DNA of 64,000 nucleotides, from contig CAZKWX010000001.1 of assembly GCA_964556685.1 (NCBI GenBank), positions 11,417-75,416 on the forward strand. The letters run 5' to 3'. This DNA comes from an uncultured Bdellovibrionales bacterium (lineage in GTDB: Bacteria; Patescibacteriota; Minisyncoccia; Moranbacterales; DUUL01). Position 1 is the first letter of the stretch, and each line of letters starts with the position of its first letter. Of this stretch, positions 1,373 through 60,318 are shown piece by piece. A model generated the notes under the pieces. The model was not told the origin of the DNA and made no database searches. It saw only the letters and a program-made list of their open reading frames with translations. The position numbers and the translations under genes are program-made.

Positions 1373-1704
1373 TGCTTTTACCTGGTCCCGCCTAGGCGGG
1401 ATCGGAATAAAAGTGGTAGAAAGATGGCTACGAAATACGAATTGAGTACGCCTGCCTGCCGATAGGCGTTGTGTTTTTCCTCCTTTAGCAAAGGAGGTGT
1501 CACGTCGCTTGCGACGTGATGGAGGATTTGAAAAGTTAGTAGGCCAAGATTTCAAATCTCCCTAGAAATTATGACTTGCTGCGCTCGTCTATAATTTCTT
1601 TCCCTCTTTGCTAAAGAGGGATGGGGAAAAAAGTTCGAACTAAGATTAACGTTGATAGAAAGATTCGTATATTAGTGTTTGATTAGTAATTAGTAGAGAA
1701 TACC

Positions 1705-8139: not shown

Positions 8140-8212
8140 AAGATCTAGGATTTAAGAATAAATTCAAATCCCCCACCTCGAGTACGAGGCACCCCCTTTA
8201 CTAAAGGGGGAA
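8140..8212. repeat. Element related to family G (TTCAAATCCC ... CCCCCTTT ACT AAAGGGGG hairpin)
   Basis: Begins GATTTAAGAATAAATTCAAATCCCCC like the 1545 and 9030 copies. Ends in the CCYCTT-N3-AAGRGG hairpin module. Confidence 0.55.
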
Positions 8213-9118: not shown

Positions 9119-9214
9119 ATTGGAAAGAAAAGGAATAAATAACTATACAACGTTGCTGTGTCGAGAAATAGTACTTGCCATAGTAAGTACGTCCGAGCAC
9201 GTATTAGAATCATT

Positions 9215-9984: not shown

Positions 9985-10428
9985 ATGAAAAAAATCAACC
10001 TAAAAATAACCACTCCGGAACGAGTGGTGCTAGAAAAAGAAGTTGATCAAGTAACTCTGCCGACTAAGGGAGGGGAGATTACGATTTTGCCTGATCACGT
10101 GCCATTGCTTTCTACCATTACGGCTGGGATCATTGTGGCCAAGATCGACGAACAAATTTCTCCTATGGCGATTTCAGGCGGTTTTTTGGAATATCACAAC
10201 AATCAAGTGACGGTTTTGGCTGACACAGCAGAAAGGGTTGAAGAAATAGATTTGGATCGAGCAGAAGAAGCTCGAAAAAGAGCCGAAAAATTGAAACAGG
10301 AAACCAGGAAAACGCTTGACGAAGGACAATATGCTGCGGTGGTCTCGCAAATTGAGAAACAACTTGCTAGAATAAAAGCAGCCCAAAAATATCGACCTCG
10401 TAGCAGTTCGACATTGGGCGATGAATAG
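9985..10428 (+). CDS. atpC: F0F1 ATP synthase subunit epsilon
   Basis: N-terminal beta-sandwich (ITTPERVVLEKEVDQVTLPTKGGEITILPDHVPL) plus C-terminal helical hairpin. Last atp gene. Confidence 0.85.
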   Translation: MKKINLKITTPERVVLEKEVDQVTLPTKGGEITILPDHVPLLSTITAGIIVAKIDEQISPMAISGGFLEYHNNQVTVLADTAERVEEIDLDRAEEARKRAEKLKQETRKTLDEGQYAAVVSQIEKQLARIKAAQKYRPRSSSTLGDE

Positions 10429-24903: not shown

Positions 24904-25497
24904 CTAATTATTTATTACTGATTGGAGTTCTTCGAAAACTTCATCCCGGCTTTGTTCGCCATCGATCACAGTCATTTTCCACCGCTTACAAAAAATTCTG
25001 TAAAGCTTCCTTTTATCGTGCAGATAATCAGGGCTCTGATCAATCGATTTTTCACGATTAAGAACGGCATCGGGTGAAACGTCAATGAAAATATAATAAT
25101 CAGGCGGAACAATCTTTTTTTCTGCCGAGCCTAGCAGGCCTTTAATGTTTCTCTCACCCTCTAAGTAGAGGATGTTGACTATTTGATCATAGAAATACCT
25201 GTCGGTGATGACATAGTCGTTGCCAGCTTTTTCCAATCGATCATAATATTTTTTGAATCTCGTTAGGTCAATCAATAATCCAATTTTTCGCAAAAAGATT
25301 TTGAAAAACCCAGCCGAAGTAACCGACTTGCTTTTCTTGTCTTTCGGTCTTCTCCTTAAGGTGGTGTTAGCAATAGAAAAATCAAGCACGTGAAAATATT
25401 GAACGGTTTTTCCGTTTTTCTCGAGATCATCTTTGAGCCTTTCGACTTGAGTGGATTTTCCGGAACCATCAATTCCAGAAATAGAAATGATTTTCAT
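24904..25497 (-). CDS. thymidylate kinase-family P-loop kinase (Tmk-like)
   Basis: GIDGSGKST P-loop and a DRY-like motif (ITDRYFYD) match the dTMP kinase family. Diverges elsewhere. Confidence 0.55.
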   Translation of the reverse strand: MKIISISGIDGSGKSTQVERLKDDLEKNGKTVQYFHVLDFSIANTTLRRRPKDKKSKSVTSAGFFKIFLRKIGLLIDLTRFKKYYDRLEKAGNDYVITDRYFYDQIVNILYLEGERNIKGLLGSAEKKIVPPDYYIFIDVSPDAVLNREKSIDQSPDYLHDKRKLYRIFCKRWKMTVIDGEQSRDEVFEELQSVINN

Positions 25498-26039
25498 TTT
25501 TTATATATTCTAAGCAAATAGGATGCTGCAAATAGCTGAATTGTACCCATGACAAAAAATAGCACTGTGAAAGATGAATAATTCACAATCAGCCCACCAA
25601 CAATAATAGCTATTCCAGCAATAATAATCCATACGCCTTCAGCTAGTCCCCAAGCAAAACCACTTTTCTTCCTAGTTGTGCTTTCTGCGTACAATGCATC
25701 CCAGGTAGGCATGATAAAAGCGGAACCGATGCCAATGCCAGCTTGAACTAACAGTAACTCAATCGGTGAGGAAACTAGCAAATACCCATAAGTAAACAGA
25801 GCTACAATAAAGAAACCAATAATCAGCAGTTTTTCTTTGGAGATGTTTTTATCTGAATATTTTCCAACTAAAATTGTTGTCAGTCCCATTAATATTAAAT
25901 AAACAGCCCAAGCCCATGAAATGTCTAATATGTTGCCTCCAACTTGCTGCCCGAAAACTGCAAAGAGGGGGCCGAGCATTCCTGCGCTCAATGACCATAA
26001 GCCAATGCCTATTAATAATGTTCTTCCGTTTTTGTTCAT
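25494..26039 (-). CDS. MFS-like 6-TM membrane protein (half-size)
   Basis: Six predicted TM helices with MFS-like loops. Only half the usual 12-TM length. ATG at 26039 (the tool ORF starts at GTG 26063). Confidence 0.4.
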   Translation of the reverse strand: MNKNGRTLLIGIGLWSLSAGMLGPLFAVFGQQVGGNILDISWAWAVYLILMGLTTILVGKYSDKNISKEKLLIIGFFIVALFTYGYLLVSSPIELLLVQAGIGIGSAFIMPTWDALYAESTTRKKSGFAWGLAEGVWIIIAGIAIIVGGLIVNYSSFTVLFFVMGTIQLFAASYLLRIYKK

Positions 26040-26070
26040 CGTCAATAAGGTAATACGAAACACCTATCTA

Positions 26071-26208
26071 TCCCTCCCCTTGGTAAAGGGAGGTTGGGAG
26101 GGGTTCGTCAGAATGTCAGGAGTCGCCGACCATTTTAACTAACTCCCCGAGCAAAGCTCATCCGCTTCGCTCCACTCCACTCTTACCAAGAGGGGGAAAA
26201 GAAATGAA
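26071..26208. repeat. Family A composite repeat (GGGTTCGTCAGAATGTCAGGAGTCGCC...CTAACTCCCCGAGCAAAGCTCATCCGCTTCGCTCCACTCTTACCAAGAGGGGGAA)
   Basis: A ~100-nt core recurs at 47141, 54515, 60195 and partially at 30381. It contains three internal hairpins. Confidence 0.75.
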
Positions 26209-26226
26209 TTTCTCAATTTAAAATAG

Positions 26227-27717
26227 TTAATACATCAAAACTGCTACAGGCATCATTTTGGCAACCGGCTTCATGACGCCATTGGTTTTGAGGCCTTCAA
26301 TAGCTTTATCCGGATTTTTATAATGAGCTGCATCCTGTTCGATCACGCCTTTTGAGGCGGCGTTGTAGAGCTTGACTCCTCGACGATTCATTTTGTCAAA
26401 AAGCACTTTTTTATTTTCTGGCACTTCAGATGTTTTGGTTTTAGATTTTCCGGTGCCGTGAGCGGCCGAAAAGTAGGCTGATTCGTTGTCATTTGTCCCA
26501 ACTCCAAAGTAAGCTGGAGTGCTCATAGAAGAAGGCATGAAAACAGGCTCGCCAGTTTGGGCAAATTTTGTTCCTTGCATTCTTTCTGGTCCAAAGGCCC
26601 GGGTGGTGTTCTGACGGTGAATCATCAAATCTTTACCAAAGTGATTTTCTTTTTTTGCATAAACATGGTTCATGTCATAGATCAGATTCAGCGAATCTTT
26701 CTTGCCCAAAATTTCTTCGATGGTTCTCTTGAGATGAAATTGAATCATGGTTCGATTGGCAAAGCCCATATTGGAAGCAGCTCGGTGAGCTGTGAAATAG
26801 TTTCTTCCCAAATCGCTGTCGGCCTTGAAAGAGAAGAATTCTTTTTTGTCTTTATATTTAGGCACTTCGGTTTCAATTGTTCGGTGCCAATCGATTTTGT
26901 TGTTGAGGAAGAAAAATCGTCCCATTTCCAAAATTGCTCTTTGGCTCAGATGTTCCTTGATTTTAGGAGTATAAAAATAGCTGGCATATTGGCCAAATAA
27001 TCCTGATCCTGTGTGAATCCAAAAAACATATTGACCTTTTTTCAGGTTGAATTTTTGAGCAGCGTCTTCGTCTAAAACATCAGTAACTTTCATCAGATCT
27101 ACAAAGTGATTGCCAGCGGCTCCCAAAATTCCCAGGCGGAATTGCCCAAAACGGAAAAACCAGCGAGGGAGAGAATTGTACAAATCTTTTTTGGTCACTT
27201 TTTCATCTTCAAACATGTTGCCCTCAGAGTGGACATTCTTGAACTGCTCGACGTCATCTTGCAACCACTCAGAAAGTGCTCGAGAACCTCTTTGGCAGAT
27301 GTCTAAAACGACTCGAAGGGGAACATAGGTGCCAAAGTATGTTTTGGTAGGAATTACTTCAACTAATTTCTTGAAAAGCTCATCAATTTGTTCTTCTTTC
27401 AAATTTTCCTCGCTAAAGGGCGTGCTCATCAATCGCATCCCGCAATTTGGTGCGGTGTCTAAAAGTTGAGGCATGAAATGATTTTCTGTGGCTACCACAG
27501 TTCCTCCGGCATTTCTCCGGCCAGGCTTCTTATGAACATCAGTCATGGCTGCAACATGCGCAACTACGTAAGAATCAGATGCCACATCAACCAGCTGCCC
27601 TATGGTTTCATCATCAGGCATCAGTTCGTCAGAGACATGAAAAATCACCGGAACTTTTTGATTTCCTGAAGGCTGTAAAATTTTTTTATAATCAGATATT
27701 TTTTCGAATTGATTCAT
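26227..27717 (-). CDS. rtcB: RtcB-family RNA ligase
   Basis: HVAAMTDVHKK, NCGMR, GNHFVD and AAHGTGK motifs characteristic of RtcB. 496 aa. Confidence 0.8.
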   Translation of the reverse strand: MNQFEKISDYKKILQPSGNQKVPVIFHVSDELMPDDETIGQLVDVASDSYVVAHVAAMTDVHKKPGRRNAGGTVVATENHFMPQLLDTAPNCGMRLMSTPFSEENLKEEQIDELFKKLVEVIPTKTYFGTYVPLRVVLDICQRGSRALSEWLQDDVEQFKNVHSEGNMFEDEKVTKKDLYNSLPRWFFRFGQFRLGILGAAGNHFVDLMKVTDVLDEDAAQKFNLKKGQYVFWIHTGSGLFGQYASYFYTPKIKEHLSQRAILEMGRFFFLNNKIDWHRTIETEVPKYKDKKEFFSFKADSDLGRNYFTAHRAASNMGFANRTMIQFHLKRTIEEILGKKDSLNLIYDMNHVYAKKENHFGKDLMIHRQNTTRAFGPERMQGTKFAQTGEPVFMPSSMSTPAYFGVGTNDNESAYFSAAHGTGKSKTKTSEVPENKKVLFDKMNRRGVKLYNAASKGVIEQDAAHYKNPDKAIEGLKTNGVMKPVAKMMPVAVLMY

Positions 27718-27753
27718 TTATGCTATGATAATGAAAAAGAAAGGAGGTTTGTC

Positions 27754-27972
27754 ATGCAAGCACTTAATAATTTCTGCGCAAATTTATCTAAATTCTTTAT
27801 TTTTCCAATAGGAATGGTTTATCTGAGTTTATCATTCGCCTGCCAATCTCGAAGTGCAGGCTTAGGGTCTTGTATCGTGCTAAATTGCTACGCGACTGCC
27901 ATAATTGGCATACTTATAATGATCTACGTCGTATCACCGATGTACACTAGGTATCAAAGAGGGAAAAAATAA
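27754..27972 (+). CDS. small membrane protein (hypothetical)
   Basis: AGGAGG Shine-Dalgarno 7 nt upstream of the ATG at 27754. Two hydrophobic helices. Confidence 0.3.
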   Translation: MQALNNFCANLSKFFIFPIGMVYLSLSFACQSRSAGLGSCIVLNCYATAIIGILIMIYVVSPMYTRYQRGKK

Positions 27973-27996
27973 AATGGAAAACAAATATCAATCTTG

Positions 27997-28019
27997 AGGA
28001 CCCATGAATTCGGGTCCTC
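27997..28019. terminator. hairpin GAGGACCC-ATGAATT-CGGGTCCTC between convergent genes
   Basis: 8-bp GC-rich perfect stem between the 27754(+) and 28025(-) genes. Only a weak U-tract. Confidence 0.4.
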
Positions 28020-28024
28020 AAAGC

Positions 28025-29200
28025 TTATAGGCTCTCATAAACTTCAGCATACTCCTTAGCTGTTTTTTTTATGTCAAAATTTTCCTGGGCAAATTTTCTA
28101 GCATTAGAGCCGATTCGGTCTAGTGTGACTGGGTTGTTTTTTAAATATTCAATTGTCTTAGCCAAAGTTTCAGGATCGGCTTTGGGAACGATAACCCCAT
28201 TTTCTCCATCCCTGACGAACTCTTTTAAAACAGGCAGATCTGAAATAACAACAGCTCTTCCACAAGCCATCGGTTCAACGATAGCATAGGGAATGTCAAA
28301 TTTTCCTTCCATTTTACGCGCTGGGAAAATATTTAAATCAGTCGTATTAAAAAGTCTGGCAATGTCATTAAAATAGTCCAAAAACACCACCTGCTTATCA
28401 TAGCCCGATTTCTTCAGTCTTTCAATCACTGCCTCTTTCTTCTTTTTATCTTCAGGAGATTTTATTCGTACAGTCATAATCAGCTTATATTTCAAATCTT
28501 TTTTCCAAAGAATTTCCATCGCATCAATCACATCATCAACTGTTTTTTCATTCATCTTGGTGTATTCTCCAGTATACTGGAGAAGGAAATCTTCAGAAGA
28601 AAATCCCAATTCTTGAATCAGCTGCTCGTCTTTTGCTGTAGGGGAATATTCTTCTAAATCAATCCCGGGGTATATTGTAGCGGTATTCTCAATGCCTACC
28701 TTATTCAGTTTTTCTTCGGTGTGATTGGATTGAGTGATAACTTTATCAGTGAAGAAAACTTTTCTCAGTTTTTTATTATTCCCACATGTAGAGTTGAGAC
28801 ATTGCCTCGACTCTACGGATGGCAAGGCAGCTACGGTTTGGATGGTTTTGGCCTTAGAAAATGACAAACGTAGTTTTATCATGAATGAAGTCAAAGAGCG
28901 AGGAGTGAAAAGGAAGTGAATAGCGTCTGCGTTCAGCTTGAAGCGATAAAGTCTCATGAGCAATCTCAGCTTTGACCAAGCGCCGAATTTGGTGGAACTA
29001 TAAATTGGTTCTGGTTTTGCTTCGGCCAAATAGCCTTCCTTTTTCTCTTCTTTCTTTTTAATCTCCTTAGCAAACTCTTGGGTGGTCAACACTTCAAACT
29101 CAAAATCACCCTCAACATTTTGAGATAATTCATAGGCTAAATTTTTCGATGCCTCATCCCAGGGTGGAGCCAATGGGCGAGTGTAGAGGAGAATTTTCAA
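28025..29200 (-). CDS. glycosyltransferase family 1 (GT4-like)
   Basis: C-terminal EGKFDIPYAIVEPMACGRAVVISDLPVLKEFV...GENG is the GT1 E-x7-E type motif. Apparent TTG start. Confidence 0.8.
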   Translation of the reverse strand: MKILLYTRPLAPPWDEASKNLAYELSQNVEGDFEFEVLTTQEFAKEIKKKEEKKEGYLAEAKPEPIYSSTKFGAWSKLRLLMRLYRFKLNADAIHFLFTPRSLTSFMIKLRLSFSKAKTIQTVAALPSVESRQCLNSTCGNNKKLRKVFFTDKVITQSNHTEEKLNKVGIENTATIYPGIDLEEYSPTAKDEQLIQELGFSSEDFLLQYTGEYTKMNEKTVDDVIDAMEILWKKDLKYKLIMTVRIKSPEDKKKKEAVIERLKKSGYDKQVVFLDYFNDIARLFNTTDLNIFPARKMEGKFDIPYAIVEPMACGRAVVISDLPVLKEFVRDGENGVIVPKADPETLAKTIEYLKNNPVTLDRIGSNARKFAQENFDIKKTAKEYAEVYESL

Positions 29201-29321
29201 TTTCAGATTTTAAATTTATAATTTCAATTTTGTAATTAATCAGGTTTCGTTTCTTGAAGCTAAGCTTCGCAGCCGTTACTTTATGTAAAAGTTGACTTAG
29301 AATAAAATCTACTTATACTTG

Positions 29322-29452
29322 AGTTGGGCAGGATGGTTAGGTGACGTATACCTTTTACAGAGCGGACTTGGTCCTTTTAAAAGCTGTTAGGTGGGGACTA
29401 AGTTCGTTGTATATCAAACTTGGCCGTTCTGCCCATTTTTTATAGGTCAATG
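29322..29452 (+). ncRNA. candidate structured small RNA (closing stem TGGGCAGGA...TCTGCCCA plus U-tract)
   Basis: ~125-nt intergenic segment whose ends pair (TTGGGCAG / CTGCCCA), followed by TTTTTTAT on the + strand. Internal hairpins GGACTTGGTCC and GGTGACGTATACC. Confidence 0.2.
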
Positions 29453-29874
29453 AAGAAACCTTTCTGGGCCTTTTTTGTTTCCAAGCGTTTTGTGATTTCT
29501 TCAACATTCTTATCTTTATTCCAAATAACTCTAACCAAGGCTTTATGCTCTCCGGATCTCAATGATTCTATTTCTTTTTTCACTTCATTTGGAGTCGCAA
29601 CTGACGACTTTCCACCGCTGGGAATTTCCACTTTTTCAGTGTGGGACAACTGGTCGTCCATGTAATATTCAACCGTGAAAGTTCTTTTTTGCGGTTCGGA
29701 ATTATTGATGAAGAAATCAAGATTGCTTAAATTACTATCTATAGTCTCAAATCCCACCACCACAAAACCACGAGTGGCTTTTTGGTTGAGAACTTTGTCG
29801 CCATGCCGAAACAGGATGCCAACGGCACCGAATATTATGATTAATATTAATACAATTAACAATTTTGACTTCAT
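29440..29874 (-). CDS. N-terminally TM-anchored hypothetical protein
   Basis: Single N-terminal TM helix, then a soluble domain. No motif recognised. Confidence 0.4.
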   Translation of the reverse strand: MKSKLLIVLILIIIFGAVGILFRHGDKVLNQKATRGFVVVGFETIDSNLSNLDFFINNSEPQKRTFTVEYYMDDQLSHTEKVEIPSGGKSSVATPNEVKKEIESLRSGEHKALVRVIWNKDKNVEEITKRLETKKAQKGFFIDL

Positions 29875-29880
29875 TTTTCT

Positions 29881-29960
29881 TGTTTTTCTTCCCCTCTTCT
29901 TAAGAGGGGACTGAATTCATTGGTTTTGAATTCAGGGAGTTCGTCGGGAGGCTGTTATGT
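29881..29960. repeat. hairpin-module repeat (CCCCTCTT-CTT-AAGAGGGG + CTGAATTCA-TTGGTTTT-GAATTCAG)
   Basis: The TGAATTCA-N-TGAATTCA hairpin module recurs at ~36518, ~47164 and ~58785. Confidence 0.6.
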
Positions 29961-29979
29961 TTACCAAGTATTATATTCC

Positions 29980-30363
29980 TTAATTATCCAGTCCTAATTC
30001 TTCTCTAATTTTGAACAAAATCCCGTCTAAATTATTATATATTTCATTGTTCCAAAATCTGACAGCCTTAATTCTTTGTGTTTTTAAAAATTCAGACCTA
30101 TTCTTGTCACTTTCTCTGCTACTTTCATAAGCATGTTGATCCCCATCTAATTCTATGGCCAGTCTCTTTCTAGGACAATAAAAATCTAAAATGTATTTTC
30201 CTATACTGTATTGCCGATAAAATTTGTATCCCTCAATTTGTTTATTTCTTAACTGTTGCCATAATTTTCCTTCAGCGTCAGTCTGATTTTTTCGAAAAGC
30301 TCGGGGCAATTGTTTAGATCTTTTTTGATTGTGTCGATTAGACAACATCTTTTTATTTATCAT
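29980..30363 (-). CDS. DUF559 / Vsr-like endonuclease-fold protein
   Basis: YRQYSIGKYILDFYCPRKRLAIELDGDQH matches the DUF559 (very-short-patch-repair endonuclease-like) core. ATG at 30363. Confidence 0.6.
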   Translation of the reverse strand: MINKKMLSNRHNQKRSKQLPRAFRKNQTDAEGKLWQQLRNKQIEGYKFYRQYSIGKYILDFYCPRKRLAIELDGDQHAYESSRESDKNRSEFLKTQRIKAVRFWNNEIYNNLDGILFKIREELGLDN

Positions 30364-30380
30364 TGACAACTGCCAGATAG

Positions 30381-30418
30381 CTAACTCCCCCTAACCCCCT
30401 CTTGCCAAGAGGGGGAAT
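30381..30418. repeat. partial family A element (CTAACTCCCCCTAACCCCCTCTTGCCAAGAGGGGGAA)
   Basis: Matches the 3' half of family A. Confidence 0.55.
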
Positions 30419-30430
30419 TCATATAATTTA

Positions 30431-32422
30431 CTAATTTCGCTTATAAATCACTGTGTTAGTTGAAGCATATACCTTAGAGAAATTATTTGAATTGTCAAAT
30501 TGGGCGTTGTCATAACCTTTTTTGAGCATGATGTATTTCACTCCGGTTTCGTCGTAACACTGCACTCCACGCTCGGTGTCTGGCTGAATAACCATGTCTC
30601 TAGTGCAGGTTTCTCGTTTCTTGTATATGTCGTCATAGCGTTTGTCGAAAGTCCGCGAAAGCGGATATTTATATCCCCGCATAAAAAATATTTTTATCCA
30701 CGAGTCTCCGGCCAAATGAGTATGGTCCTTGAGAACTTGTTCATCTTTAGTGGTTCGATCAGCCAAATACATTGAGGCCAAATAGGTTTGAAAAACTTCC
30801 TGATTTTTTCTGGGATCATGGTCACGAGCTGAGTCAGAAATGTCGGAAAAACCAGAAATAAATCCAGTTCCGAAGATGACTAGCCCGACAAGAATGGCCA
30901 ATGCCTTGGAAAGTCTTCGAGCAGAGAGGGCAAAAATTAGTACAACAGAAATGGCTGCCAAAATCGACATAGGGTAAGTGATGTAGCTAACGATTCTGTT
31001 GGAAGGAATGTCAACCTTCAAAAAGGTAGGTTTAACACTCATCAAAATGATCATGACAGTCCAAGCGAGCAAAAATCCCAGCGATGCCAAGATAAGAATG
31101 TTTTTCTTCTCATTGCCATCTTTGCCAGATTTTTTGAAGACAAAAAGCATAACTAGTGCGATGACGGCCAATCCGATCATTCCATAGAGAAATCTCCAAG
31201 GTCCAGCGCTGAGTATCACTGCTCCGATGGTCAGTCCAGTTCGAGTGGCCTTGACGGGTGTGCCCACGGCGGTGTCAATTGCTTCAGGATTGAGATAGGA
31301 TGGCTCGCGAACAAAGAAAAAGAAGAGGATCAATAAAATTACCAGGATCATGTTGCGGAAGGCAAAAAACGGTTTCGCATAAACTAGGAGGGCAGAAAAA
31401 AACTTTTTCAAATTGAAACGATAATAAATCAAAAGCGCTACGAGTAAAACTACCAAAAATCCAACCAGAGCATATAAAAATATATAACTGGAAAGATGAT
31501 GAGTATAGACCATAGTGGCTACAGCCAGAATAAAAGCCATGGCTAAGTTGCGACTCTTGAATTTCAGTGTTGTGACAAAAAGATAGATTACGAAAGGGAT
31601 GAAGAAGTTGCCAATGATGTTGCCAATCACGCCGCCAGAAACAAATTTGGCTCCCGGAGATGAAATTGCATAAAAAGTACCAGTGATGAGCAGAACAAAG
31701 AATGCAATATTTTTTGCCGTTCTTTTTTTGGTAAAATATTCACTCAAACGATAGGCTAAAATAAATATGGCCAGTAATGAAAAAATATTGATTAGAAACA
31801 AAGTGACAACCGGCATGGCACTGACAAAGGGAATCTTCGTCAATGCAGCAACCGAAGCAAAAACGATGTGTTCACCGATAATGAAATCTGGTTGGCCATC
31901 ATAGTCAGGCAGTGTTCCATTGGTGGTGATGTAACTGGACCAATACATGTGATGGCCCATGTCGGTGGTTTGGGGCATGATGCCGCGAGAAACATAGAAA
32001 CCACGAATGGCGACAGCGAACAATAGAATCAAAATAAATATTAAAATCTGCCGATAGGAGAAATGCCGCAAAGAGGAGAAGTAATCTTCTTTCGGTGTCA
32101 TCCCGGACTTGCCGTGCCCGCTCTTTGGAGGGATCCGGGATCCATTCTCTCTAGTCCTAAGTTTATAAACACCCCAGCAAAGAGCAGAGAACAGCAATAT
32201 GACCATCAAAATCCATTTTCCTGTGATGGGAATGCTGCCAAAATCCATCAGCATGACCAGAAAGTTGGTGGCAGTCAGACTCAGTCCGAAAGAAATGACT
32301 AACTTTTCCAATGCAGAAAACCGGTTTTGAAAGCGACCCAAAATAGCTAACATAAAAAAGAATCCCGGAATAAAAAGGACCAAAAAAATTGATAAATAAA
32401 GTTTTATTATGGGTATTAGCAT
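30431..32422 (-). CDS. large polytopic membrane protein with C-terminal extracytoplasmic domain (possible GT-C-like glycosyltransferase / polymerase)
   Basis: ~13 TM helices plus a ~150-aa soluble C-terminal domain. Sits in the glycan cluster. Family assignment uncertain. Confidence 0.45.
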   Translation of the reverse strand: MLIPIIKLYLSIFLVLFIPGFFFMLAILGRFQNRFSALEKLVISFGLSLTATNFLVMLMDFGSIPITGKWILMVILLFSALCWGVYKLRTRENGSRIPPKSGHGKSGMTPKEDYFSSLRHFSYRQILIFILILLFAVAIRGFYVSRGIMPQTTDMGHHMYWSSYITTNGTLPDYDGQPDFIIGEHIVFASVAALTKIPFVSAMPVVTLFLINIFSLLAIFILAYRLSEYFTKKRTAKNIAFFVLLITGTFYAISSPGAKFVSGGVIGNIIGNFFIPFVIYLFVTTLKFKSRNLAMAFILAVATMVYTHHLSSYIFLYALVGFLVVLLVALLIYYRFNLKKFFSALLVYAKPFFAFRNMILVILLILFFFFVREPSYLNPEAIDTAVGTPVKATRTGLTIGAVILSAGPWRFLYGMIGLAVIALVMLFVFKKSGKDGNEKKNILILASLGFLLAWTVMIILMSVKPTFLKVDIPSNRIVSYITYPMSILAAISVVLIFALSARRLSKALAILVGLVIFGTGFISGFSDISDSARDHDPRKNQEVFQTYLASMYLADRTTKDEQVLKDHTHLAGDSWIKIFFMRGYKYPLSRTFDKRYDDIYKKRETCTRDMVIQPDTERGVQCYDETGVKYIMLKKGYDNAQFDNSNNFSKVYASTNTVIYKRN

Positions 32423-32467
32423 TGATTACTACACTAATTATACGCCAAAATTAGGGAAAAACAACAT

Positions 32468-32496
32468 TTGACAAAATACTTATAAAATGATATAAT
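32468..32496 (+). promoter_or_regulatory. consensus sigma70-type promoter TTGACA-17-TATAAT
   Basis: TTGACA at 32468-32473, 17-nt spacer, TATAAT at 32491-32496. Lies ~85 nt upstream of the ATG at 32584. Flanked by the 11-bp inverted repeat AAACAACATTT / AAATGTTGTTT. Confidence 0.5.
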
Positions 32497-32583
32497 CATA
32501 GAATATAATAAATGTTGTTTTTTTTAAATAATCTCTCAATAGCGACGCAAAATAAACCAACAGAAATCAGTGAGGAAAGGAGA

Positions 32584-33015
32584 ATGGCCATGCAAAGGTT
32601 TATTGTCAAGCAAGGAAATTTTGAGGTAATGGAGTTTCCCGGTGAAAGTTTCTGTAAGGTGCCAGGCGCCGTTCATAATGGACAGCATTGGCAGGCACCG
32701 GGCAAGATTCTTGTTCAACTAGAGTCTGATGACGAAAGAGGGGCGGTATTCTCATTGTTTCATCCCAAAACGAATGGCGTTACAACTGGCCATGTTGACA
32801 TCATCTTCGCAATTCATGGGAAAAATGCGGAGTTGAGACGATATTCCGGGATGAAAAAAATATCATTAAGAAGTGCGCTCTTCAAGATGTTTTGGCCAGA
32901 TGGGCCGAACCATCTCATCGAGACCTTACGTTCATTGGGTGGTAGTTTCATCAAGAACCATCAGGCTACCCGTTTCGGACGAATCGTTATTTTGGCCGCT
33001 AACAGTTTGAATTAA
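32584..33015 (+). CDS. hypothetical protein
   Basis: GAGGAAAGGAG Shine-Dalgarno before the ATG at 32584. 143 aa. No recognised motif. Confidence 0.45.
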   Translation: MAMQRFIVKQGNFEVMEFPGESFCKVPGAVHNGQHWQAPGKILVQLESDDERGAVFSLFHPKTNGVTTGHVDIIFAIHGKNAELRRYSGMKKISLRSALFKMFWPDGPNHLIETLRSLGGSFIKNHQATRFGRIVILAANSLN

Positions 33016-33032
33016 TAAGCGGCATGAACAAA

Positions 33033-33077
33033 AAAGGTCCCGTCGACAGACAATTTGTCGATGGGCCTTTATCTTTT
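33033..33077 (+). terminator. rho-independent terminator
   Basis: GGTCCCGTCGAC-loop-GTCGATGGGCC stem followed by TTTATCTTTT. Lies 18 nt after the stop of 32584..33015. Confidence 0.6.
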
Positions 33078-33084
33078 AGAAAGA

Positions 33085-34194
33085 TTAATATTTCTTCATC
33101 TCATCCAAGTACCTTTGGCAAATTTGGTCCCAAGTAAAGTTTTCTTCTACGTACTGTCCTGCGCGTTTGCCGAATGCTCGAGTGAAGGCATCACCGGCAT
33201 CAAGAATTTTATTTATTTTTCCCAGCCAATGGTCAACATTTTCTGGATCAACCAAGAAGCCATTTTCCCCATCTTTAATTGCGTCAGCCAAACCTTCAAG
33301 ATTGGAAGCGACTACTACTCGTTCACAAGTTCCTGCTTCAATGGCGTTGATGCCAAAGCCTTCCATTGATCCGGGCACCTTGATGTTAGGCGAAACCACC
33401 AAATCAACCGTGTTGAGCAAAATTTTCAGGTCTTTTTGTGGTAGGGAGGGAAGGAGCTTCACCCGATCTTCCAAGCTATTTTGGATTATTGCTTGCTCAC
33501 AATTGAGAAAATCATCCGGGTCGCCAGCAGTATTCTTGTGCACTCGGTGTCCAGTGGCAATCATCACAACATTTTCAGCCAGCTTGGGCATGATATTTTC
33601 AATAAACCAACTGGTTCCTTTGTGGGGAACAAAGCGAGCTAATCTCAAAATTACTTTTTTGTTGTCTAATTTCTTTCCGAAAAGCTCAGCCAGTTCATCA
33701 CGATTATGGGATTCTCTTAATTCATTTGGATTGACACCATTGGGAATGAAAGTGCATAAATCTTGATCAATATCAACTTTGATGGCTTCGTCAATAGTCG
33801 TGGTACCAACCGTGAAAAGTTGATCCATCTTTTTCAAGGATGGAATGTTAGTCTTAGCGTAAATCTTTGACAGTAAACCATCTTTTCTGGCATAGACGAT
33901 ATCCAAGCCATGAACAACGCAAAAGAATTTTTTATTTTTATAAAAAGGCTTCAAGGCGGCACCAATGGGTGCTAAAATTCCACTGCCGAAAAGGCATGCA
34001 TCATATTTTCTCAACTGGAATAAGGCTATGAAAAAAGTCATTGGAACAAAAACAGGCAACCACCATTTGCCTTTCCCGTTTGTGATTATTTTTGTCTCGG
34101 TGATTTTCTGCAAACCACGAGACAGATCCCTGTTTTGATTTTCTATGCCTCCAACCAAAGGAGGGTAGGAATGTGATATAAAAAGTATCTTCAT
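33085..34194 (-). CDS. glycosyltransferase family 1 (GT4-like)
   Basis: MKILFISHSYPPLVGGIE N-terminus. C-terminal EGFGINAIEAGTCERVVVASNLEGL...GENG motif. Confidence 0.8.
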   Translation of the reverse strand: MKILFISHSYPPLVGGIENQNRDLSRGLQKITETKIITNGKGKWWLPVFVPMTFFIALFQLRKYDACLFGSGILAPIGAALKPFYKNKKFFCVVHGLDIVYARKDGLLSKIYAKTNIPSLKKMDQLFTVGTTTIDEAIKVDIDQDLCTFIPNGVNPNELRESHNRDELAELFGKKLDNKKVILRLARFVPHKGTSWFIENIMPKLAENVVMIATGHRVHKNTAGDPDDFLNCEQAIIQNSLEDRVKLLPSLPQKDLKILLNTVDLVVSPNIKVPGSMEGFGINAIEAGTCERVVVASNLEGLADAIKDGENGFLVDPENVDHWLGKINKILDAGDAFTRAFGKRAGQYVEENFTWDQICQRYLDEMKKY

Positions 34195-34202
34195 TTTAAA
34201 TC

Positions 34203-34246
34203 TGGCGACCCAAATATACGAATTAACACTCGAATGTTACGAATGG
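34203..34246. repeat. Family C element (GGCGACCCAAATATACGAATTAACACTCGAAT...)
   Basis: Begins 9 nt upstream of the GT1 start codon. Related copies at 63471 (abutting the pyrG start) and 60881. Confidence 0.6.
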
Positions 34247-34257
34247 GTTAAATGAAA

Positions 34258-34392
34258 TGTCATTCCGAGCGTAGTCACGTCGTTCTAGAATGACAGTGAC
34301 GTAGTCGAGGAATCTCGAGAATTTTAATTAGATTTCTCCACTTCGCTACGCGGAGCCTGCACTGAGCAAGGCCGAATGTGGTCGAAATGACA
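34258..34392. repeat. MITE-like element family B (long copy)
   Basis: ATGTCATTCCGAGCGTAGTC ... GTCGAAATGACAT terminal inverted repeats. Internal GAGGAATCTCGAGA and CTCCACTTCGCTACGC cores. Confidence 0.7.
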
Positions 34393-34394
34393 TA

Positions 34395-35393
34395 TTATTG
34401 ACTTTGCTTTCTTTTTTCGTAGATATCCTTCCTGCGACGATAGATCGAATCCTCGGTCAACTGACGATTAGATTTAATCATATCAGCCACTAGGGCAAAA
34501 ACTAAAAATTGAATGCCTAAGAGCAACGAAAGGGAAGAAAAAACAATCAGATTGATGTAGGGGGTAATTTTAAAGGAAGTGAAATAATTAATGAAAAAGA
34601 CGATAAAGCCAAAAGTTCCGATTGTTCCAAAAAATATTCCCGGCCAACCAAAAAATTTCATTGGTCGAACATCGCGGATGGCTTTCAGAATGAGTTTAAA
34701 GCTAGTAGAGACAAACTTCCAAATAGATTTGGTAATTCTTCCTTGCCGGCCAGAAAAATAGGTAACTTTGACTGGAATCCATTTGAGTCTAAGATTTTTT
34801 CCAATGGCATCAATAATTGTTTCTTGAGTATAAGTGAAATATAAGTTTGTCAAATTGAGTCGCAAAAGAGTTTCACTGTTAAGGGCCCGAAAGCCACAGG
34901 TCAAATCATCAGTTTTCTGATTGAGAAAAAAGCCAATTAATCTGGCTGCTAATTTGTTAAGGAAACTTCGAATCCATGGAATATTTTCCGCTTTCAGTTT
35001 TCCAAAGCGATTAGCAATTGCCATATCAGCCTCTTGTTTTATTACCGGAGATAGAAGTTTGGGAATGTCTTCTGGATTAAACTGGCCATCAGCGTCTACG
35101 TTGACCATGAAATCAGTCCCGTTTTTTAATGCGCTTTCAACGGCTTGGCGAAATGAATAGGCCAATCTTCGATTGGGCTTGTAGGAAACAATAATATCAA
35201 CCCCAGCTTCTTTGGCAACTTCAACAGATCGATCAGTCGATCCATCATCCACAATTTGAATTAATTTTTCCGTGATCACGCTACCGGCTCCACTGGAGTA
35301 AAAATCATTACTAAAACTTCTCTTTATCCTGGCCACAGTTTGGCCTAGTTTTTCTTCTTCATTATAGACGGGGAGATTTACAATAAGTTTCAT
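34395..35393 (-). CDS. glycosyltransferase family 2 (Dpm1/Dpg1-like) with C-terminal TM helices
   Basis: VNLPVYNEE, VDDGSTD and VDADGQ GT2 motifs. Two C-terminal TM helices. Confidence 0.8.
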   Translation of the reverse strand: MKLIVNLPVYNEEEKLGQTVARIKRSFSNDFYSSGAGSVITEKLIQIVDDGSTDRSVEVAKEAGVDIIVSYKPNRRLAYSFRQAVESALKNGTDFMVNVDADGQFNPEDIPKLLSPVIKQEADMAIANRFGKLKAENIPWIRSFLNKLAARLIGFFLNQKTDDLTCGFRALNSETLLRLNLTNLYFTYTQETIIDAIGKNLRLKWIPVKVTYFSGRQGRITKSIWKFVSTSFKLILKAIRDVRPMKFFGWPGIFFGTIGTFGFIVFFINYFTSFKITPYINLIVFSSLSLLLGIQFLVFALVADMIKSNRQLTEDSIYRRRKDIYEKRKQSQ

Positions 35394-35607
35394 GGGTAGT
35401 AGTTTGTAGTTGCGTTGAGATTAAAAAATATAACAACATTTAAACTTGCCTTTCTAAGGCATTATCACTATAATTATACTCCAAAAGATAATAAGTTACA
35501 ATATTCAACCCAAACAGTCAAGCACTTTTATATTGTTTTTTAAAAATAGCGGAGTACACTTTTGAATAATAAAATCACTTTTTCGGCAATGAAAGAGAGG
35601 TGTTCAA

Positions 35608-36219
35608 GTGACTATAATTCACGATTATCAGCCAAGCAATAAGGAAAAGTTAATAAGCGTGCTATTTCCAAAACTAGCACCTCCAAAACTGTCATTTTCC
35701 AGAAGAATGTGTAGGGAATTACTGGATGAATTCGGAGTGATTCTTGAGGATGAATTACTACCGCTTGGGGGAAAGGAAGAACATATCGTAAGTGCTTTTT
35801 TCGGAGTTTGTGGGAGGCAAGAGGAAACAATGAGGCAGATTTCAAATGAACTTGAAATCTGCTACACACACGTTTCAAGGTTGAAAACGAGAACTCTTTT
35901 TCAGTTAAGACATCGTGCAGGAAAAGAATTTATGGATGTCATAGCTAGGATATCAAAACAATGGGAAGGATTGAAAAAAGAGGTAACGGATTTAAGAAAA
36001 ATTAATTATCCATTCCCGGAAAAAATCTCGGTTTCAGGCCTCTTGTCCAAAGAAATTGTTGACATTCTTGAAGAAAAAAAAGTGTTTAACCTGAAAAAGT
36101 TAGCAACGTGCCCATTCTGGAAATTTAAAAGAATTGGCAAAAAACGCCAGAGAATAATAAAAAGTGTTCTAAAAAAACACATGCTTTATCCAGGTATGGA
36201 AGAGGAGGATTTCAGGTAA
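35608..36219 (+). CDS. putative transcription regulator: sigma-70 region-4-like HTH fused to an RNAP alpha-CTD-like helix-hairpin-helix domain
   Basis: EEHIVSAFFGVCGRQEETMRQISNELEICYTHVSRLKTRTLFQLR fits the sigma region 4 pattern. The C-terminal LLSKEIVDILEEKKVFNLKKLATCPFWKFKRIGKKRQRIIKSVL fits an alpha-CTD/HhH pattern. Confidence 0.45.
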   Translation: MTIIHDYQPSNKEKLISVLFPKLAPPKLSFSRRMCRELLDEFGVILEDELLPLGGKEEHIVSAFFGVCGRQEETMRQISNELEICYTHVSRLKTRTLFQLRHRAGKEFMDVIARISKQWEGLKKEVTDLRKINYPFPEKISVSGLLSKEIVDILEEKKVFNLKKLATCPFWKFKRIGKKRQRIIKSVLKKHMLYPGMEEEDFR

Positions 36220-36338
36220 AAAAGTTATCAAGATGTATAGTGGGTAAAATTTTAGATCATAAAACCGGGAGTCGTCGACACGATTAGCCGGTTTTTTGCT
36301 TGAAAAAAATACTCCATAGAGAACTCTATGGAGGACAC

Positions 36339-36370
36339 GTATATACGAACGTATATACGTTGGTATATAC
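36339..36370. repeat. GTATATAC x3 array (family D)
   Basis: gtatatac-gaac-gtatatac-gttg-gtatatac. Preceded by the perfect palindrome CTCCATAGAG-AA-CTCTATGGAG. Confidence 0.8.
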
Positions 36371-36419
36371 TAGTCTCAACTCGCTAGCATAGCTATGCAC
36401 TTTGGCAACTACTTATTTA

Positions 36420-36585
36420 AGTTTCCTCCCCTTGCTAAGGGTAGAGAATTGCGAATGAGTAATTCTTAAGGAGGGGTTAGTCTAAATGGCAGTAGTCGCC
36501 GGTCATACAGACGAACTCCCCTGAATTCATTACTAATAAATTCAGCACCCTCTTACTAAGAGGGGGGGGGAGCAAGAAGAAAAAA
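36420..36585. repeat. cluster of hairpin modules (CCTCCCCTT...AAGGAGGGG, CTGAATTCATT..AAATTCAG, CCCTCTTACTAAGAGGGGGGGG)
   Basis: Same module types as at 29881, 47141 and 58770. Confidence 0.55.
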
Positions 36586-37878
36586 TTATTTCCTTCCAAT
36601 CCCATGATATTTGATTCCCAGCTTTTTTATTGCTTCGTGATCCAAACAATTTCTTCCATCAACAATTGCCAGAATTTTGTTCTTCTTAAAATCCTCTGGC
36701 TTCAAATCCAGAAACTCTTGGTGATGAGTGGCCAAAATGACTGCCTTTGATTTTTGTAAAGCTTCTTTCGGTGACTTTGCGTCAGACATTCTGGGAAAAT
36801 AGGGATCGAATCTGATGACTTTAGCTCCTCTTTTTTCTAAGATTTTGATCATTTGCAAAGAGGGTGATTCACGAAGATCGTCTACGTTTTCTTTATAAGA
36901 AAGTCCCAAGATGGTTATAGGAGTTCCTTTGATTGGCAATTTGACCTTATTGAGAAGATTTTGCAGAATATCAACTGTATAATGAGGCATGAAACGGTTT
37001 ATTTCTCGTGCTTTGCGCAAAAAGTGATGATCAAACCCAGCCTTTTTCGCTCGCTCAATCAAATAATAGGGATCAACCGGAATACAATGACCACCCACGC
37101 CACAGCTCTGACGGAAGGCCATGAATCCAAACGGCTTAGTGGCGGCTCCGTCAATCACGTCTTTGAGATCAATGTCCATCTGATCAAAACTTTGAGCCAA
37201 CTCATTGACAAAGGCGATGTTGATGTCGCGAAAAGAATTCTCCACCACTTTGACCGCTTCAGCTTCCCTGATTGACTTCATTGGTTTAATTTCTGCATCA
37301 ATAATTGACTCATAGAACTCTTTGGCTATTTTCAATCCTGTTTTCGAAAGAGCACCAACTACTCGAGCAATATTGCTCACGTCATAACCGGCGCTAACAG
37401 AAACTTTTCCCGGGTCAATTCTTTCTGGACAGTGAGCTAAATAATAATCTCGTCCCTCTTTCAAGCCAGCATCCGCAAATATAGGTTCCACTATTTCTTC
37501 GCAAACACCGGGATTAATAGTGGATTCAACGATAACTAGTTGGCCCTTTTTTCGGTTTTTTATGATCAATTCCACGGCTGATTTGATTGGATCAAGAATG
37601 GGATAGAACTGCTCATCGACCGGGGTAGGCACACAAATAATCACCACATCAGATTTTTTTATACTCAAGCCGCTTGAGGAAACTGAAATCTTTTTCAACA
37701 AACTTTTTCGTTTCTCGATGAACTCATCTTTCAGAGGACTTTGCCCTTTTTTGACAATAGCTATTTTTTTCTTGTCTAAATCAATCCCAAAAACTTTGTG
37801 ACCCTTTTCTACACATCGGACTGCTAGTGGCAAACCTACATAGCCAAGACCAATGATAGCAATGGTTTTATTTTCCAT
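36586..37878 (-). CDS. UDP-glucose/GDP-mannose dehydrogenase family nucleotide-sugar dehydrogenase
   Basis: N-terminal IAIIGLGYVGLPLAV Rossmann fold. Catalytic region GFMAFRQSCGVGGHCIPVDPYYL. 430 aa. Confidence 0.85.
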   Translation of the reverse strand: MENKTIAIIGLGYVGLPLAVRCVEKGHKVFGIDLDKKKIAIVKKGQSPLKDEFIEKRKSLLKKISVSSSGLSIKKSDVVIICVPTPVDEQFYPILDPIKSAVELIIKNRKKGQLVIVESTINPGVCEEIVEPIFADAGLKEGRDYYLAHCPERIDPGKVSVSAGYDVSNIARVVGALSKTGLKIAKEFYESIIDAEIKPMKSIREAEAVKVVENSFRDINIAFVNELAQSFDQMDIDLKDVIDGAATKPFGFMAFRQSCGVGGHCIPVDPYYLIERAKKAGFDHHFLRKAREINRFMPHYTVDILQNLLNKVKLPIKGTPITILGLSYKENVDDLRESPSLQMIKILEKRGAKVIRFDPYFPRMSDAKSPKEALQKSKAVILATHHQEFLDLKPEDFKKNKILAIVDGRNCLDHEAIKKLGIKYHGIGRK

Positions 37879-39610: not shown

Positions 39611-39640
39611 CCAATCAGTCAATCAAAATATTCAAGTCCT

Positions 39641-39666
39641 ACTCTCATATATGCATATATGAGAGT
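39641..39666. promoter_or_regulatory. 26-bp perfect palindrome ACTCTCATATATG|CATATATGAGAGT (family E)
   Basis: Identical copies at 50291 and 50801. A half copy at 47289. Confidence 0.7.
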
Positions 39667-39887
39667 AAAAGTTTTTGTGGTTGTGATGATTTTCAAAACC
39701 CAGAACTTGACCCATTACTCGGTTTTGGGAGCTTGTAACGCGGACCGATGCTGATATAAAGAAACTTAGTTTTCAGGGAAACTAAGTTTCTTGCGGCGTA
39801 CCCTGAGAGAGGAGATAGCTAATACTAGCAAAGTCTTTACAAAAAGGCTTTTTTTGGTTATGCTTGTTAAGTTCTAATTCGTTATAT

Positions 39888-47094: not shown

Positions 47095-47140
47095 CCTTTT
47101 ATGAACTGTATAATACCTTAAGCTATGAAAAGCCTTTTTG

Positions 47141-47284
47141 TCCCTCCCCTTCGAAAGGGGATGTTGAATTCATTAGTTTTGAATTCAAAGGGGTTCGTCA
47201 GAATGTCAGGAGTCGCCAGCCATTTTGACTAACTCCCCGAGCAAAACTCATCCGCTTTGCTCCACTCTTATCAAGAGGGGGAAG
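47141..47284. repeat. Family A composite repeat (full copy with upstream hairpin modules)
   Basis: CCCTCCCCTTCGAAAGGGGATG, TGAATTCATTAGTTTTGAATTCA, GGGGTTCGTCAGAATGTCAGGAGTCGCC ... CTCTTATCAAGAGGGGGAA. Confidence 0.75.
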
Positions 47285-54503: not shown

Positions 54504-54514
54504 GCACCGGCCTT

Positions 54515-54575
54515 CTAACTAACTCCCCGAGCAAAGCTCATCCGCTTCGCTCCACTCTTACCAAGAGGGGGAAAA
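54515..54575. repeat. family A element (3' portion)
   Basis: CTAACTAACTCCCCGAGCAAAGCTCATCCGCTTCGCTCCACTCTTACCAAGAGGGGGAAAAG. Confidence 0.7.
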
Positions 54576-54582
54576 GAACATA

Positions 54583-58716: not shown

Positions 58717-58898
58717 GTTTAAACTTCGTATGTCTTCTTCAGAGTTGCTTTTGTTAATAGTGATCACCAGCCCTTCGACTAACTCCCCTGAATTCAAAAC
58801 TAATGAATTCAGTCCCCTCTTAACAAGAGGGGAAATAGAATTTCCGCCGGAGTTTGTGCCGCACTTGCCGTATCCGCCTTTGGAGGAATGCGGTGCGG

Positions 58899-58918: not shown

Positions 58919-58977
58919 GCTTTGGCACGTCTCAGTCAACCACCCCTTCACCCCTCCTTTCTAAGGAGGGGAAATAT

Positions 58978-60148: not shown

Positions 60149-60194
60149 AATGCTTTTTTAAATTAGGAAATATTTATTCATTTTTCCTTAAAAC

Positions 60195-60254
60195 ATCAGG
60201 AGTCACCAGCCATTTTGACTAACTCCCCCTAGCCCCCTCTTACCAAGAGGGGGA
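60195..60254. repeat. family A element (short variant)
   Basis: CAGGAGTCACCAGCCATTTTGACTAACTCCCCCTAGCCCCCTCTTACCAAGAGGGGGAAC. Confidence 0.65.
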
Positions 60255-60318
60255 ACTATTGAACATTTGTAATTCACGTATTCGCGTCACTCGCATTCAT
60301 TCGCGGATTAGCATCGCA

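Follow-up and report, generated by a model that had tools for sequence, protein, structure and literature searches.

Dispersed triplex-type repeats share their ends with a DUF559 endonuclease cassette in a Moranbacteria-like genome

Introduction

The stretch of DNA analysed here (the window: 64,000 nt, positions 11,417 to 75,416 of contig CAZKWX010000001.1, assembly GCA_964556685.1) comes from an uncultured, low-GC, Moranbacteria-like bacterium of the candidate phyla radiation (CPR). In the spacers between ordinary housekeeping genes it carries copies of a dispersed hairpin repeat, family A, and at one site, next to a DUF1616 gene, a cassette with a DUF559 (Vsr-like) endonuclease gene between the same two end units. 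The 64-kb window is the source of the data, and all in-genome copy counts given below refer to it.

Enterobacteria and cyanobacteria, among other bacteria, carry repeats of the BoxC/PIT/TMECO type in large numbers. No partner protein or spreading mechanism is known for these repeats, and their function has been a puzzle since the 1990s. In Escherichia coli a class II intrastrand-triplex architecture with the type A loop TTA has been described for them, and close inverted pairs of triplex motifs occur at five sites (Holder et al. 2015, PMC4666352, where the earlier BoxC/PIT work by Bergler, Bachellier and Hoyne/Maher is cited). DUF559, for its part, is a very widespread family of small proteins without an assigned role.

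Results

A complete family A copy measures 135-145 nt and is built from two inverted units facing each other across a conserved central spacer of ~15 nt, so that the whole element is an imperfect palindrome (Table 1). Within a unit, a C-rich stem and its G-rich complement are separated by a first loop, and another loop (loop 2) leads on to a further G-rich block, the mirror image of the G-rich stem; this mirror-repeat “third strand” reads ACTAACTCCCC. The modules follow each other in a fixed order: left C-rich hairpin, an optional GAATTCA..TGAATTC hairpin (H2), left arm GGGGTTCGTCAGAATG, the 15-nt spacer, right arm CATTTTGACTAACTCCCC containing the J box, the H4 hairpin GAGCAAAGC..GCTTTGCTC, and right C-rich hairpin. 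The left C-rich hairpin is the inverted partner of the right-end hairpin. In the fold of copy 1 the hairpins at the two ends pair together, and the end-hairpin loops TTGGTAAA and TTACCAAG are reverse complementary, which makes the hairpins true terminal inverted repeats. Complete copies are found twice, at 26071-26203 and 47140-47284, and all remaining copies, at least four of them partial, are truncated or module-swapped. Short, non-coding, present in several copies and ended by inverted repeats, family A in these features resembles a miniature inverted-repeat transposable element (MITE). Both strands fold far better than shuffled sequences (z -3.3 to -4.65), and 84% of the predicted pairs form across six aligned copies, even where the unrelated palindrome H2 replaces H4.

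Table 1. Family A copies, related units and the DUF559 cassette, in positions of the window.
Feature	Position	Strand	Description
Complete copy 1	26071..26203	+	fold z -3.3 (+), -4.65 (-)
Copy 1, left unit	26073-26093 (C-rich hairpin)		third strand GGAGGGGTT; this left half passes the strict class II triplex scan
Copy 1, left arm	26100-26115
Copy 1, central spacer	26116-26130
Copy 1, right arm	26131-26148		with J box (CATTTTAACTAACTCCCC)
Copy 1, H4	26149-26172
Copy 1, right C-rich hairpin	26177-26198
Complete copy 2	47140..47284	+	fold z -4.4 and -4.1
Copy 2, left hairpin	47145-47161
Copy 2, H2	47165-47187		in loop 2
Copy 2, left arm	47190-47205
Copy 2, central spacer	47206-47220
Copy 2, J arm	47221-47238
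Copy 2, H4	47239-47262
Copy 2, right hairpin	47262-47283
5'-truncated copy	54504..54579	+	partial spacer, J box, H4, right hairpin
Partial copy	60184..60255	+	degenerate left arm, spacer, J box, right hairpin via 3-nt loop CTA; neither H4 nor left hairpin
Diverged full-length variant	36425..36570	+	left hairpin, different loop-2 hairpin, arms GGGGTTAGTCTAAATG / CATACAGACGAACTCCCC, H2 replacing H4, right hairpin
5'-truncated variant	58760..58834	+	spacer, J box, H2, right hairpin
Solitary triplex-type unit	58941..58973	-	CCCTCCTT-AGA-AAGGAGGG-GTGAAG-GGGTGGTT
Two C-rich hairpin units	1479..1621 (1479-1526, 1600-1621)		between ATP synthase c-subunit coding region and ATP synthase B gene
Solitary C-rich hairpin unit	8170..8212	-	downstream of ATP synthase beta gene
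DUF559 cassette	29889-30417		gene bracketed by the same two end units as family A
Cassette downstream end	29889..29951	-	inverted unit: C-rich hairpin, H2 in loop 2, third strand GGGAGTT(CGTC)
DUF559 / Vsr-like endonuclease gene	29980..30369	-	called product 122 aa; Pfam PF04480, E 9e-34
Cassette upstream end	30380..30417	+	J box and C-rich hairpin, ~20 nt before the start codon

A previous model-made reading of the letters (the sequence-only reading) had described family A as a ~100-nt core with three hairpins, always intergenic, more than 90% similar between copies and present in both orientations. The core does occur at the places given there, with no match in 100 shuffles as the chance expectation, and all copies lie between genes. 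The 26-mer GGTTCGTCAGAATGTCAGGAGTCGCC matches exactly at 26102 and 47192, and the J-box region is found at 26131, 47221 and 54511. A window-wide repeat search placed the right-end hairpin at 26168, 30387, 47253, 54543, 58805 and 60225 and returned 94% identity both for 26099-26177 versus 47189-47267 and for 54543-54578 versus 26168-26203. The similarity above 90% is therefore a property of the best core pairs only, and with flanks included the pairwise identity between copies drops to 54-85%. The three hairpins named in that reading are all present in 26101-26203 and 47189-47284 but in none of the other copies. The copy read at 54515-54575 is real, although it comprises only the 3' two-thirds of an element (54504-54579), from the stop codon of the S24 peptidase gene upstream onwards; that at 60195-60254 is equally real (60184-60255) but without the middle hairpin; and the partial copy at 30381-30418 is a 38-nt end piece (30380-30417). 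The core itself had been drawn too short, as the element starts ~30-50 nt further left with the C-rich hairpin (26073-26093; 47145-47161), and the GGAGT..ACTCC hairpin exists but is subsumed in the longer stem GGGGTTCGTCAGAATG / CATTTTGACTAACTCCCC. Missing from the earlier list were 36425-36570, 58760-58834, 58941-58973, 29889-29951, 1479-1526, 1600-1621 and 8170-8212. The claim of both orientations did not hold: all five listed copies are on the + strand and differ only relative to the flanking genes, which run either way, and the sole inverted piece is 29889-29951.

On the - strand the central spacer and adjoining arm (47206-47238, 26116-26148) read GGGGAGTTAGTCAAAATG, followed by a 5-codon open reading frame (ORF), M(A/V)GDS-stop, which shows a synonymous change at 60199-60216; we judged this mini-ORF incidental.

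The units of family A follow the pattern of intrastrand triplex motifs. The G-rich strand of 30380-30417 reads CCCCCTCTT-GGC-AAGAGGGGG-TTA-GGGGGAGTT, and the - strand of 60184-60255 reads CCCCCTCTT-GGT-AAGAGGGGG-CTA-GGGGGAGTT; both are perfect triplex motifs. Since 30380-30417 reads as stem, complement, 3-nt loop and mirror block, the J box is the third strand of the motif. A strict class II scan (three consecutive blocks, stems of 6-15 nt, at most 1 mismatch, loops of 1-6 nt) found four sites with 8-nt stems in the window, namely 26073-26104 (+), 30383-30414 (-), 58938-58970 (-) and 60221-60252 (-), as against 0 in 30 shuffles and 0 in 64 kb of relatives. The accessory hairpins H2 and H4 and a third one at 1498-1520 always lie in loop 2, between duplex and third strand. 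In the unit 1479-1526 this different accessory hairpin (TGTCACGTCGCTTGCGACGTGA) is followed by the third strand GGAGGAT; the neighbouring ATP synthase c-subunit region (~1150-1372) was recognised in the sequence by eye. On 9 of 27 hairpin sides a perfect 7/7 third-strand segment was found no more than 45 nt away (null probability 0.028), at offsets of 2-3 nt or 16-37 nt, that is, straight after the stem or beyond an intervening hairpin.

The DUF559 cassette carries the same ends as family A around an apparently intact gene. Its left 63 nt are ~83% identical to copy 47140 (47138-47199), its right 39 nt match copy 60184 at 36 of 39 positions (60219-60257), and the left end is 96% complementary to the variant 58760-58834 (29889-29937 versus 58786-58834). 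The gene has Pfam matches to PF04480 (DUF559) and PF18741 only; the invariant residues D55, E66, D68 and H72 are intact, and an identical protein is present in four read sets. The DUF559 profile matches the structure 3hrl (PDB; E 3e-35) and, distantly, the homing endonuclease I-Bth0305I (3r3p; E 3e-4), and PADLOC made no defence-system assignment for DUF559. As the gene-less copies share one central spacer sequence, they must propagate without the gene and cannot each stem from a separate deletion.

Comparison with related genomes shows that both a gene-less copy and the cassette occupy sites which are empty elsewhere. The relatives with conserved gene order are distant, at 67-72% amino-acid identity (the nearest named RtcB homologue, from Candidatus Moranbacteria, has 72% identity). 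The spacer from the M16 peptidase to the AI-2E transporter gene, which holds copy 47140-47284, is 251 nt long here versus 4 nt in one relative (L085) and 8 nt in another (L086). The spacer from DUF1616 to the next gene measures 556 nt with the DUF559 cassette versus 9 nt in L082, and the genes overlap in L083. Presence/absence variation at orthologous sites, as in MITEs, is thus seen at both spacers, and an intact nuclease gene lies inserted between genes that abut in relatives (L082, L083), as with free-standing homing endonucleases. The variant 36425-36570 sits within ~1 kb missing from the syntenic L083, and the syntenic 64 kb of relatives contain none of these C-rich hairpins and no DUF559. 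The best explanation of these comparisons is that family A would have entered the Moranbacteria-like lineage after its split from the sequenced relatives. The organism is present in metagenomes such as SRR24302423 and SRR29008690. Its short-read (Logan) contigs, assembled independently, break off within repeat copies (window positions 26182, 47151, 47218 and 60213); used to extend the source genome, these contigs were short and yielded no new copies.

Other differences from the relatives, and one split gene, were also noted. The glycosyltransferase-RtcB spacer (27718-28024) is 307 nt long versus 30 nt (L082) and 14 nt (L083), and contains a hairpin (27993-28022) and no recognisable repeat family. 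A 203-aa ORF on the opposite strand (35608-36219), with weak similarity to sigma-factor region 4, lies within the ~1 kb missing from L083, a stretch bordered by element 36425-36570. Between the NIF3-like and M16 peptidase genes, which abut in L086, a PDDEXK_3 / GxxExxY gene (122 aa, 45383-45751) represents another small nuclease-like insertion, without adjoining C-rich hairpins. Downstream of copy 1, the gene of a major facilitator superfamily (MFS) transporter (24904-26063) is split into the overlapping ORFs 24904-25497 and 25494-26063, which suggests a frameshift or a sequencing error.

The association of C-rich hairpins with DUF559 recurs in other genomes. The arrangement hairpin, GGGGAGTTA, gene, TAACTCCCC, hairpin is also present in a Patescibacteria metagenome-assembled genome (MAG; L006), in L039, in a contig of 50% GC (L040) and in a metagenomic contig of 31% GC (L043). 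In the last of these (L043, 7385-8132) the DUF559 gene lies between the Aminotran_3 aminotransferase and OTCase genes of an arginine-biosynthesis cluster and is flanked by 168-nt direct repeats (92% identical), whose modules recur separately on the contig. The pairing recurs in metagenomic and IMG/VR contigs which span 31% to 74% GC and whose hosts are not identified. A C-rich perfect hairpin lies within 200 nt of the gene at 31 of 36 DUF559 loci, drawn from several phyla, and flanking inverted repeats far above controls were found at 24 of 34. The density of C-rich hairpins is 4.97 per kb near the DUF559 gene versus 0.38 per kb elsewhere. Many DUF559 homologues also carry read-through tails such as PPLNLRGG. 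A search of the genome collection for the J box plus hairpin pattern gave only 8 short-motif matches, in CPR, Nostoc and deltaproteobacterial MAGs. Of 26 metagenome matches to CATTTTRACTAACTCCCC, almost all were put down to chance, as its reverse complement looks like a ribosome-binding site followed by ATG.

In E. coli K-12 the ycjD-fabI spacer (L093, 5041-5407) contains an exact TMECO match ~170 nt after the DUF559 gene ycjD. In detail, ycjD is followed by a degenerate C-rich hairpin over the stop codon, a duplicated ycjD 3' fragment and TMECO. Across 5,426 complete E. coli genomes the median number of places with this repeat is 16, and the accessory gene ycjD is found in 3,378 of them (62%). 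In 60 genomes sampled at even spacing, the median number of TMECO places was 17 with ycjD (n=37) versus 3 without (n=23; Mann-Whitney P ~1e-9, ignoring phylogeny). Salmonella reportedly has no TMECO. A 9-mer common to the window and the hairpin upstream of ycjD (GTCAGAATG) was judged a chance match. None of our literature searches (DUF559, COG2852, PF04480, Vsr-like plus inverted repeats, intrastrand triplex) links DUF559 to repeats, and Holder et al. (PMC4666352) found no flanking-gene pattern and mention neither ycjD nor any endonuclease. The recurring DUF559-repeat association appears to be unreported.

Discussion

Our analysis establishes the anatomy of family A, its status as an insertion, the ends it shares with the DUF559 cassette and the recurrence of the hairpin-DUF559 association. 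The sequence-only reading had left two branches, a mobile MITE-like element or a conserved structured RNA or terminator cassette, and the evidence favours the mobile one: the repeat has terminal inverted repeats, is non-coding and multi-copy, is absent in relatives and shares its ends with a cassette. Neither the triplex-motif architecture nor the link to a DUF559 gene had been foreseen in that reading. We regard family A as a DNA-level selfish repeat and as the gene-less counterpart of the DUF559 endonuclease cassette, with a probability of roughly 0.6. The DUF559 nuclease would cut at the units, which it would recognise as palindromic sites in the duplex or as structures folded from a single strand. 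Recombinational repair or copying would then spread gene-bearing and gene-less versions between intergenic sites, much like a homing endonuclease acting on dispersed targets, or like the pair formed by repetitive extragenic palindromic (REP) sequences and their REP-associated tyrosine transposase (RAYT).

Judged from its sequence, family A is a repeat of BoxC/PIT-type architecture from a different sequence family, in an inverted-pair (MITE- or REPIN-like) configuration, in a CPR genome. Common to both are the C-rich stem, a loop of 3-6 nt, the complementary G-rich stem, a 3-nt loop and the mirror G-rich block (PMC4666352), and the TTA loop of type A BoxC/PIT elements is the same TTA as in window 30380-30417. 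BoxC/PIT elements are likewise strictly intergenic, dispersed in tens of copies per genome, sometimes arranged in close inverted pairs, devoid of promoter or terminator activity and tied to local genome variability. In contrast, the family A stem is CCCCCTCTT as opposed to CCCTCNCCC in TMECO, its host is a low-GC CPR bacterium, complete copies have extra hairpins of ~23-24 nt in loop 2, outside the published range, and its units bracket a DUF559 gene where published work on BoxC/PIT reports no associated gene.

REP sequences, their mosaics (bacterial interspersed mosaic elements, BIMEs) and the REPIN-RAYT system offer a second parallel. These, too, are short GC-rich imperfect palindromes in mosaics and inverted doublets, intergenic and without target-site duplication, with one small nuclease gene flanked by inverted repeat copies and with gene-less doublets scattered elsewhere. 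The family A repeat sequence is unrelated, however, and the flanked gene encodes a Vsr-like PD-(D/E)XK protein (DUF559) instead of an HUH Y1 (IS200/IS605-like) transposase, and is a putative partner of the repeat.

A wider generalisation, whose odds we place somewhat below even, is that DUF559 endonucleases may be the partner enzymes of BoxC/PIT/triplex-type repeats throughout bacteria. Enzyme and repeats would together make up a selfish system of the REP/RAYT kind with a PD-(D/E)XK nuclease at its core, in which some cassettes carry the gene between inverted triplex-type units and numerous derivatives, family A among them, are gene-less. Should the link be causal, the repeats and DUF559 become one testable system in which both gain a function, and annotators could recognise such repeats as well as spurious PPLxxRGG protein tails. 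If true, this would also account for where BoxC-type repeats come from, for their patchy copy number and for the local genome instability that goes with them.

A number of observations weigh against these interpretations. With respect to the triplex architecture, the loop-2 limit of 1-6 nt is exceeded by a hairpin of ~20-25 nt in the right units of both complete copies, in the left unit of copy 2 and in 54504, 58760 and 36425, although the third strand beyond the loop-2 hairpin still provides 6-7 of 7 triads. The TMECO sequence pattern CCCTCNCCC-N3-6-GGGNGAGGG-N3-GGGNGAGGG has no match in the window even with 3 substitutions, and Holder et al. did not find a stable triplex in vivo (PMC4666352). 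The flanking-duplication check suggested by the sequence-only reading revealed no shared direct repeat at the copy boundaries: GAA/GAA at the cassette is the sole candidate, the exact element ends are uncertain, and there is no near-identical empty site to compare. With respect to the link with DUF559, only 10 of 36 DUF559 loci have the J box (GGRGTT ahead of the gene) as against a 7% background, which makes it enriched and not universal, and the hairpin and inverted-repeat counts (31/36 and 24/34) are not independent events, as related high-GC contigs dominate the IMG/VR sample. Phylogroup is a confounder of the E. coli correlation, and O157 strains, which have no ycjD, keep ~12 copies. In ycjD-less strains (L094, L095) the locus holds an efflux operon, and its use as a simple empty site was rejected. 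Finally, two complete copies and one DUF559 gene in the visible 64 kb are too small a basis for a genome-wide number.

The same anatomy is also fitted by a nuclease gene that homed into, or is hitch-hiking in, pre-existing repeats. Homing systems such as I-Bth0305I and free-standing homing endonuclease genes share with the DUF559 cassette a small Vsr-like nuclease gene inserted between genes that abut in relatives, and a gene-less version of the DUF559 flanks exists as a possible target. Unlike the cassette, I-Bth0305I is intron-encoded, has a unique coding target site and no known dispersed hairpin repeats. A cassette with its own ends, a gene homing into pre-existing repeats and a conventional MITE with an unseen transposase fit the data alike.

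The last of these holds that family A is an ordinary MITE, moved in trans by a conventional transposase encoded elsewhere, and that the DUF559 gene is a separate homing-type gene which landed in, or targets, one copy; we consider this unlikely, yet it is the most serious of the remaining alternatives. Bacterial MITEs such as Correia/NEMIS, RUP and ERIC are non-coding, intergenic, lineage-variable elements of 100-150 nt with terminal inverted repeats which fold into one long hairpin. Family A is like them in size, ends, fold, intergenic site and presence variation, and its several copies inserted relative to relatives are what such an element would leave. As only 64 kb of the genome are seen, a transposase could lie outside the window. 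Moreover, the flanks of the cassette are exactly the two halves of the gene-less element, as insertion into a pre-existing copy would give. On the other hand, no transposase domain, Y1 included, was found in the 55 window ORFs scanned with Pfam, neither a DDE transposase partner with matching ends nor a recognisable target-site duplication was seen, and the family A ends are themselves self-complementary triplex-type units. The one partner with the same ends (29889-30417) encodes DUF559, which is not a known transposase. The cassette site carries no repeat in relatives, so that this scenario needs two successive insertions; nor does a lineage-specific transposase explain why the hairpin-DUF559 link recurs across phyla, across GC contents and in E. 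coli.

A role at the RNA level, with family A stabilising the 3' ends of neighbouring mRNAs or acting as an attenuator, as proposed for REP/BIME, and with its spread being secondary, is improbable. Every copy does lie in a spacer with at least one gene 3' end, and the strong folds on both strands and the predicted pairs kept even after module replacement would suit such a role. However, none of the 47 terminator-like calls (25500-37000, 46500-61000) falls on an element, which for lack of a T-run is not terminator-like, whereas canonical terminators occur elsewhere in the window. The copies keep one chromosomal orientation whichever way the flanking genes run, relatives, whose orthologous genes abut, lack the elements in these spacers, and PIT/BoxC elements have shown neither promoter nor terminator activity in E. 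coli (PMC4666352). Neither half of the RNA or terminator branch of the sequence-only reading was thus borne out.

A free-standing gene for a structured small RNA, or a riboregulator, kept for its fold is a highly improbable reading of family A: several stable hairpins, a conserved central spacer and one compensatory change in the central stem (of 36425-36570) speak for it, but no Rfam family reaches the gathering score anywhere in the window (the best sub-threshold match, in E-value mode, being a microRNA hairpin model at 23.9 bits versus 70), either strand folds equally well, the element has no associated promoter or terminator, modules are freely swapped or truncated between copies, and relatives do not conserve it. 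The proposed covariation check across copies did bring up a few compensatory changes, which we rejected as RNA evidence since they are equally expected for inverted DNA repeats. Two H4 mismatches that form G-U pairs only on the - strand amount to two events and are not informative.

Other features of the window

The window contains further repeats besides family A, and no tRNA. The perfect palindrome TACTCTCATATATGCATATATGAGAGTA makes up a second dispersed family, with copies at 39640-39670, 50290-50320 and 50800-50830 and part of a copy at 47289-47306; position 39641, in the first of these, is also the end of a Logan contig. Two of its copies flank a Trp-repressor-like gene (50371-50787), which like the Maf gene (49637-50224) is missing from the syntenic L086. 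A third dispersed family (TCACGAGATTCCTCGACTACGC... / CGAAGCGAAGTGGAGAGATCTC) occurs in both orientations at 6079-6155, 34300-34351, 43276-43319 and 61041-61074, and another Logan contig end, at 34359, adjoins the copy 34300-34351. The repeat pair GGCGACCCAAATATACGAATTAACACTCGAAT is found at 34195-34245 and 63465-63560, in direct and inverted arrangement. Arrays of GTATATAC-N4-GTATATAC with an operator-like look are located in several spacers, often adjoining hairpin elements (8255-8288, 36337-36372, 58000-58042, 58685-58718 and ~58900-58920).

The ATP synthase operon (1-10428) is interrupted between the gamma and beta genes by genes for a CYTH-domain and an aminoacyl-tRNA-editing-domain protein (5384-6654), and two further ORFs (8308-9871) precede the epsilon gene. 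Repeat clusters are located in this operon at 1380-1625, 6079-6155 and 8150-8300.

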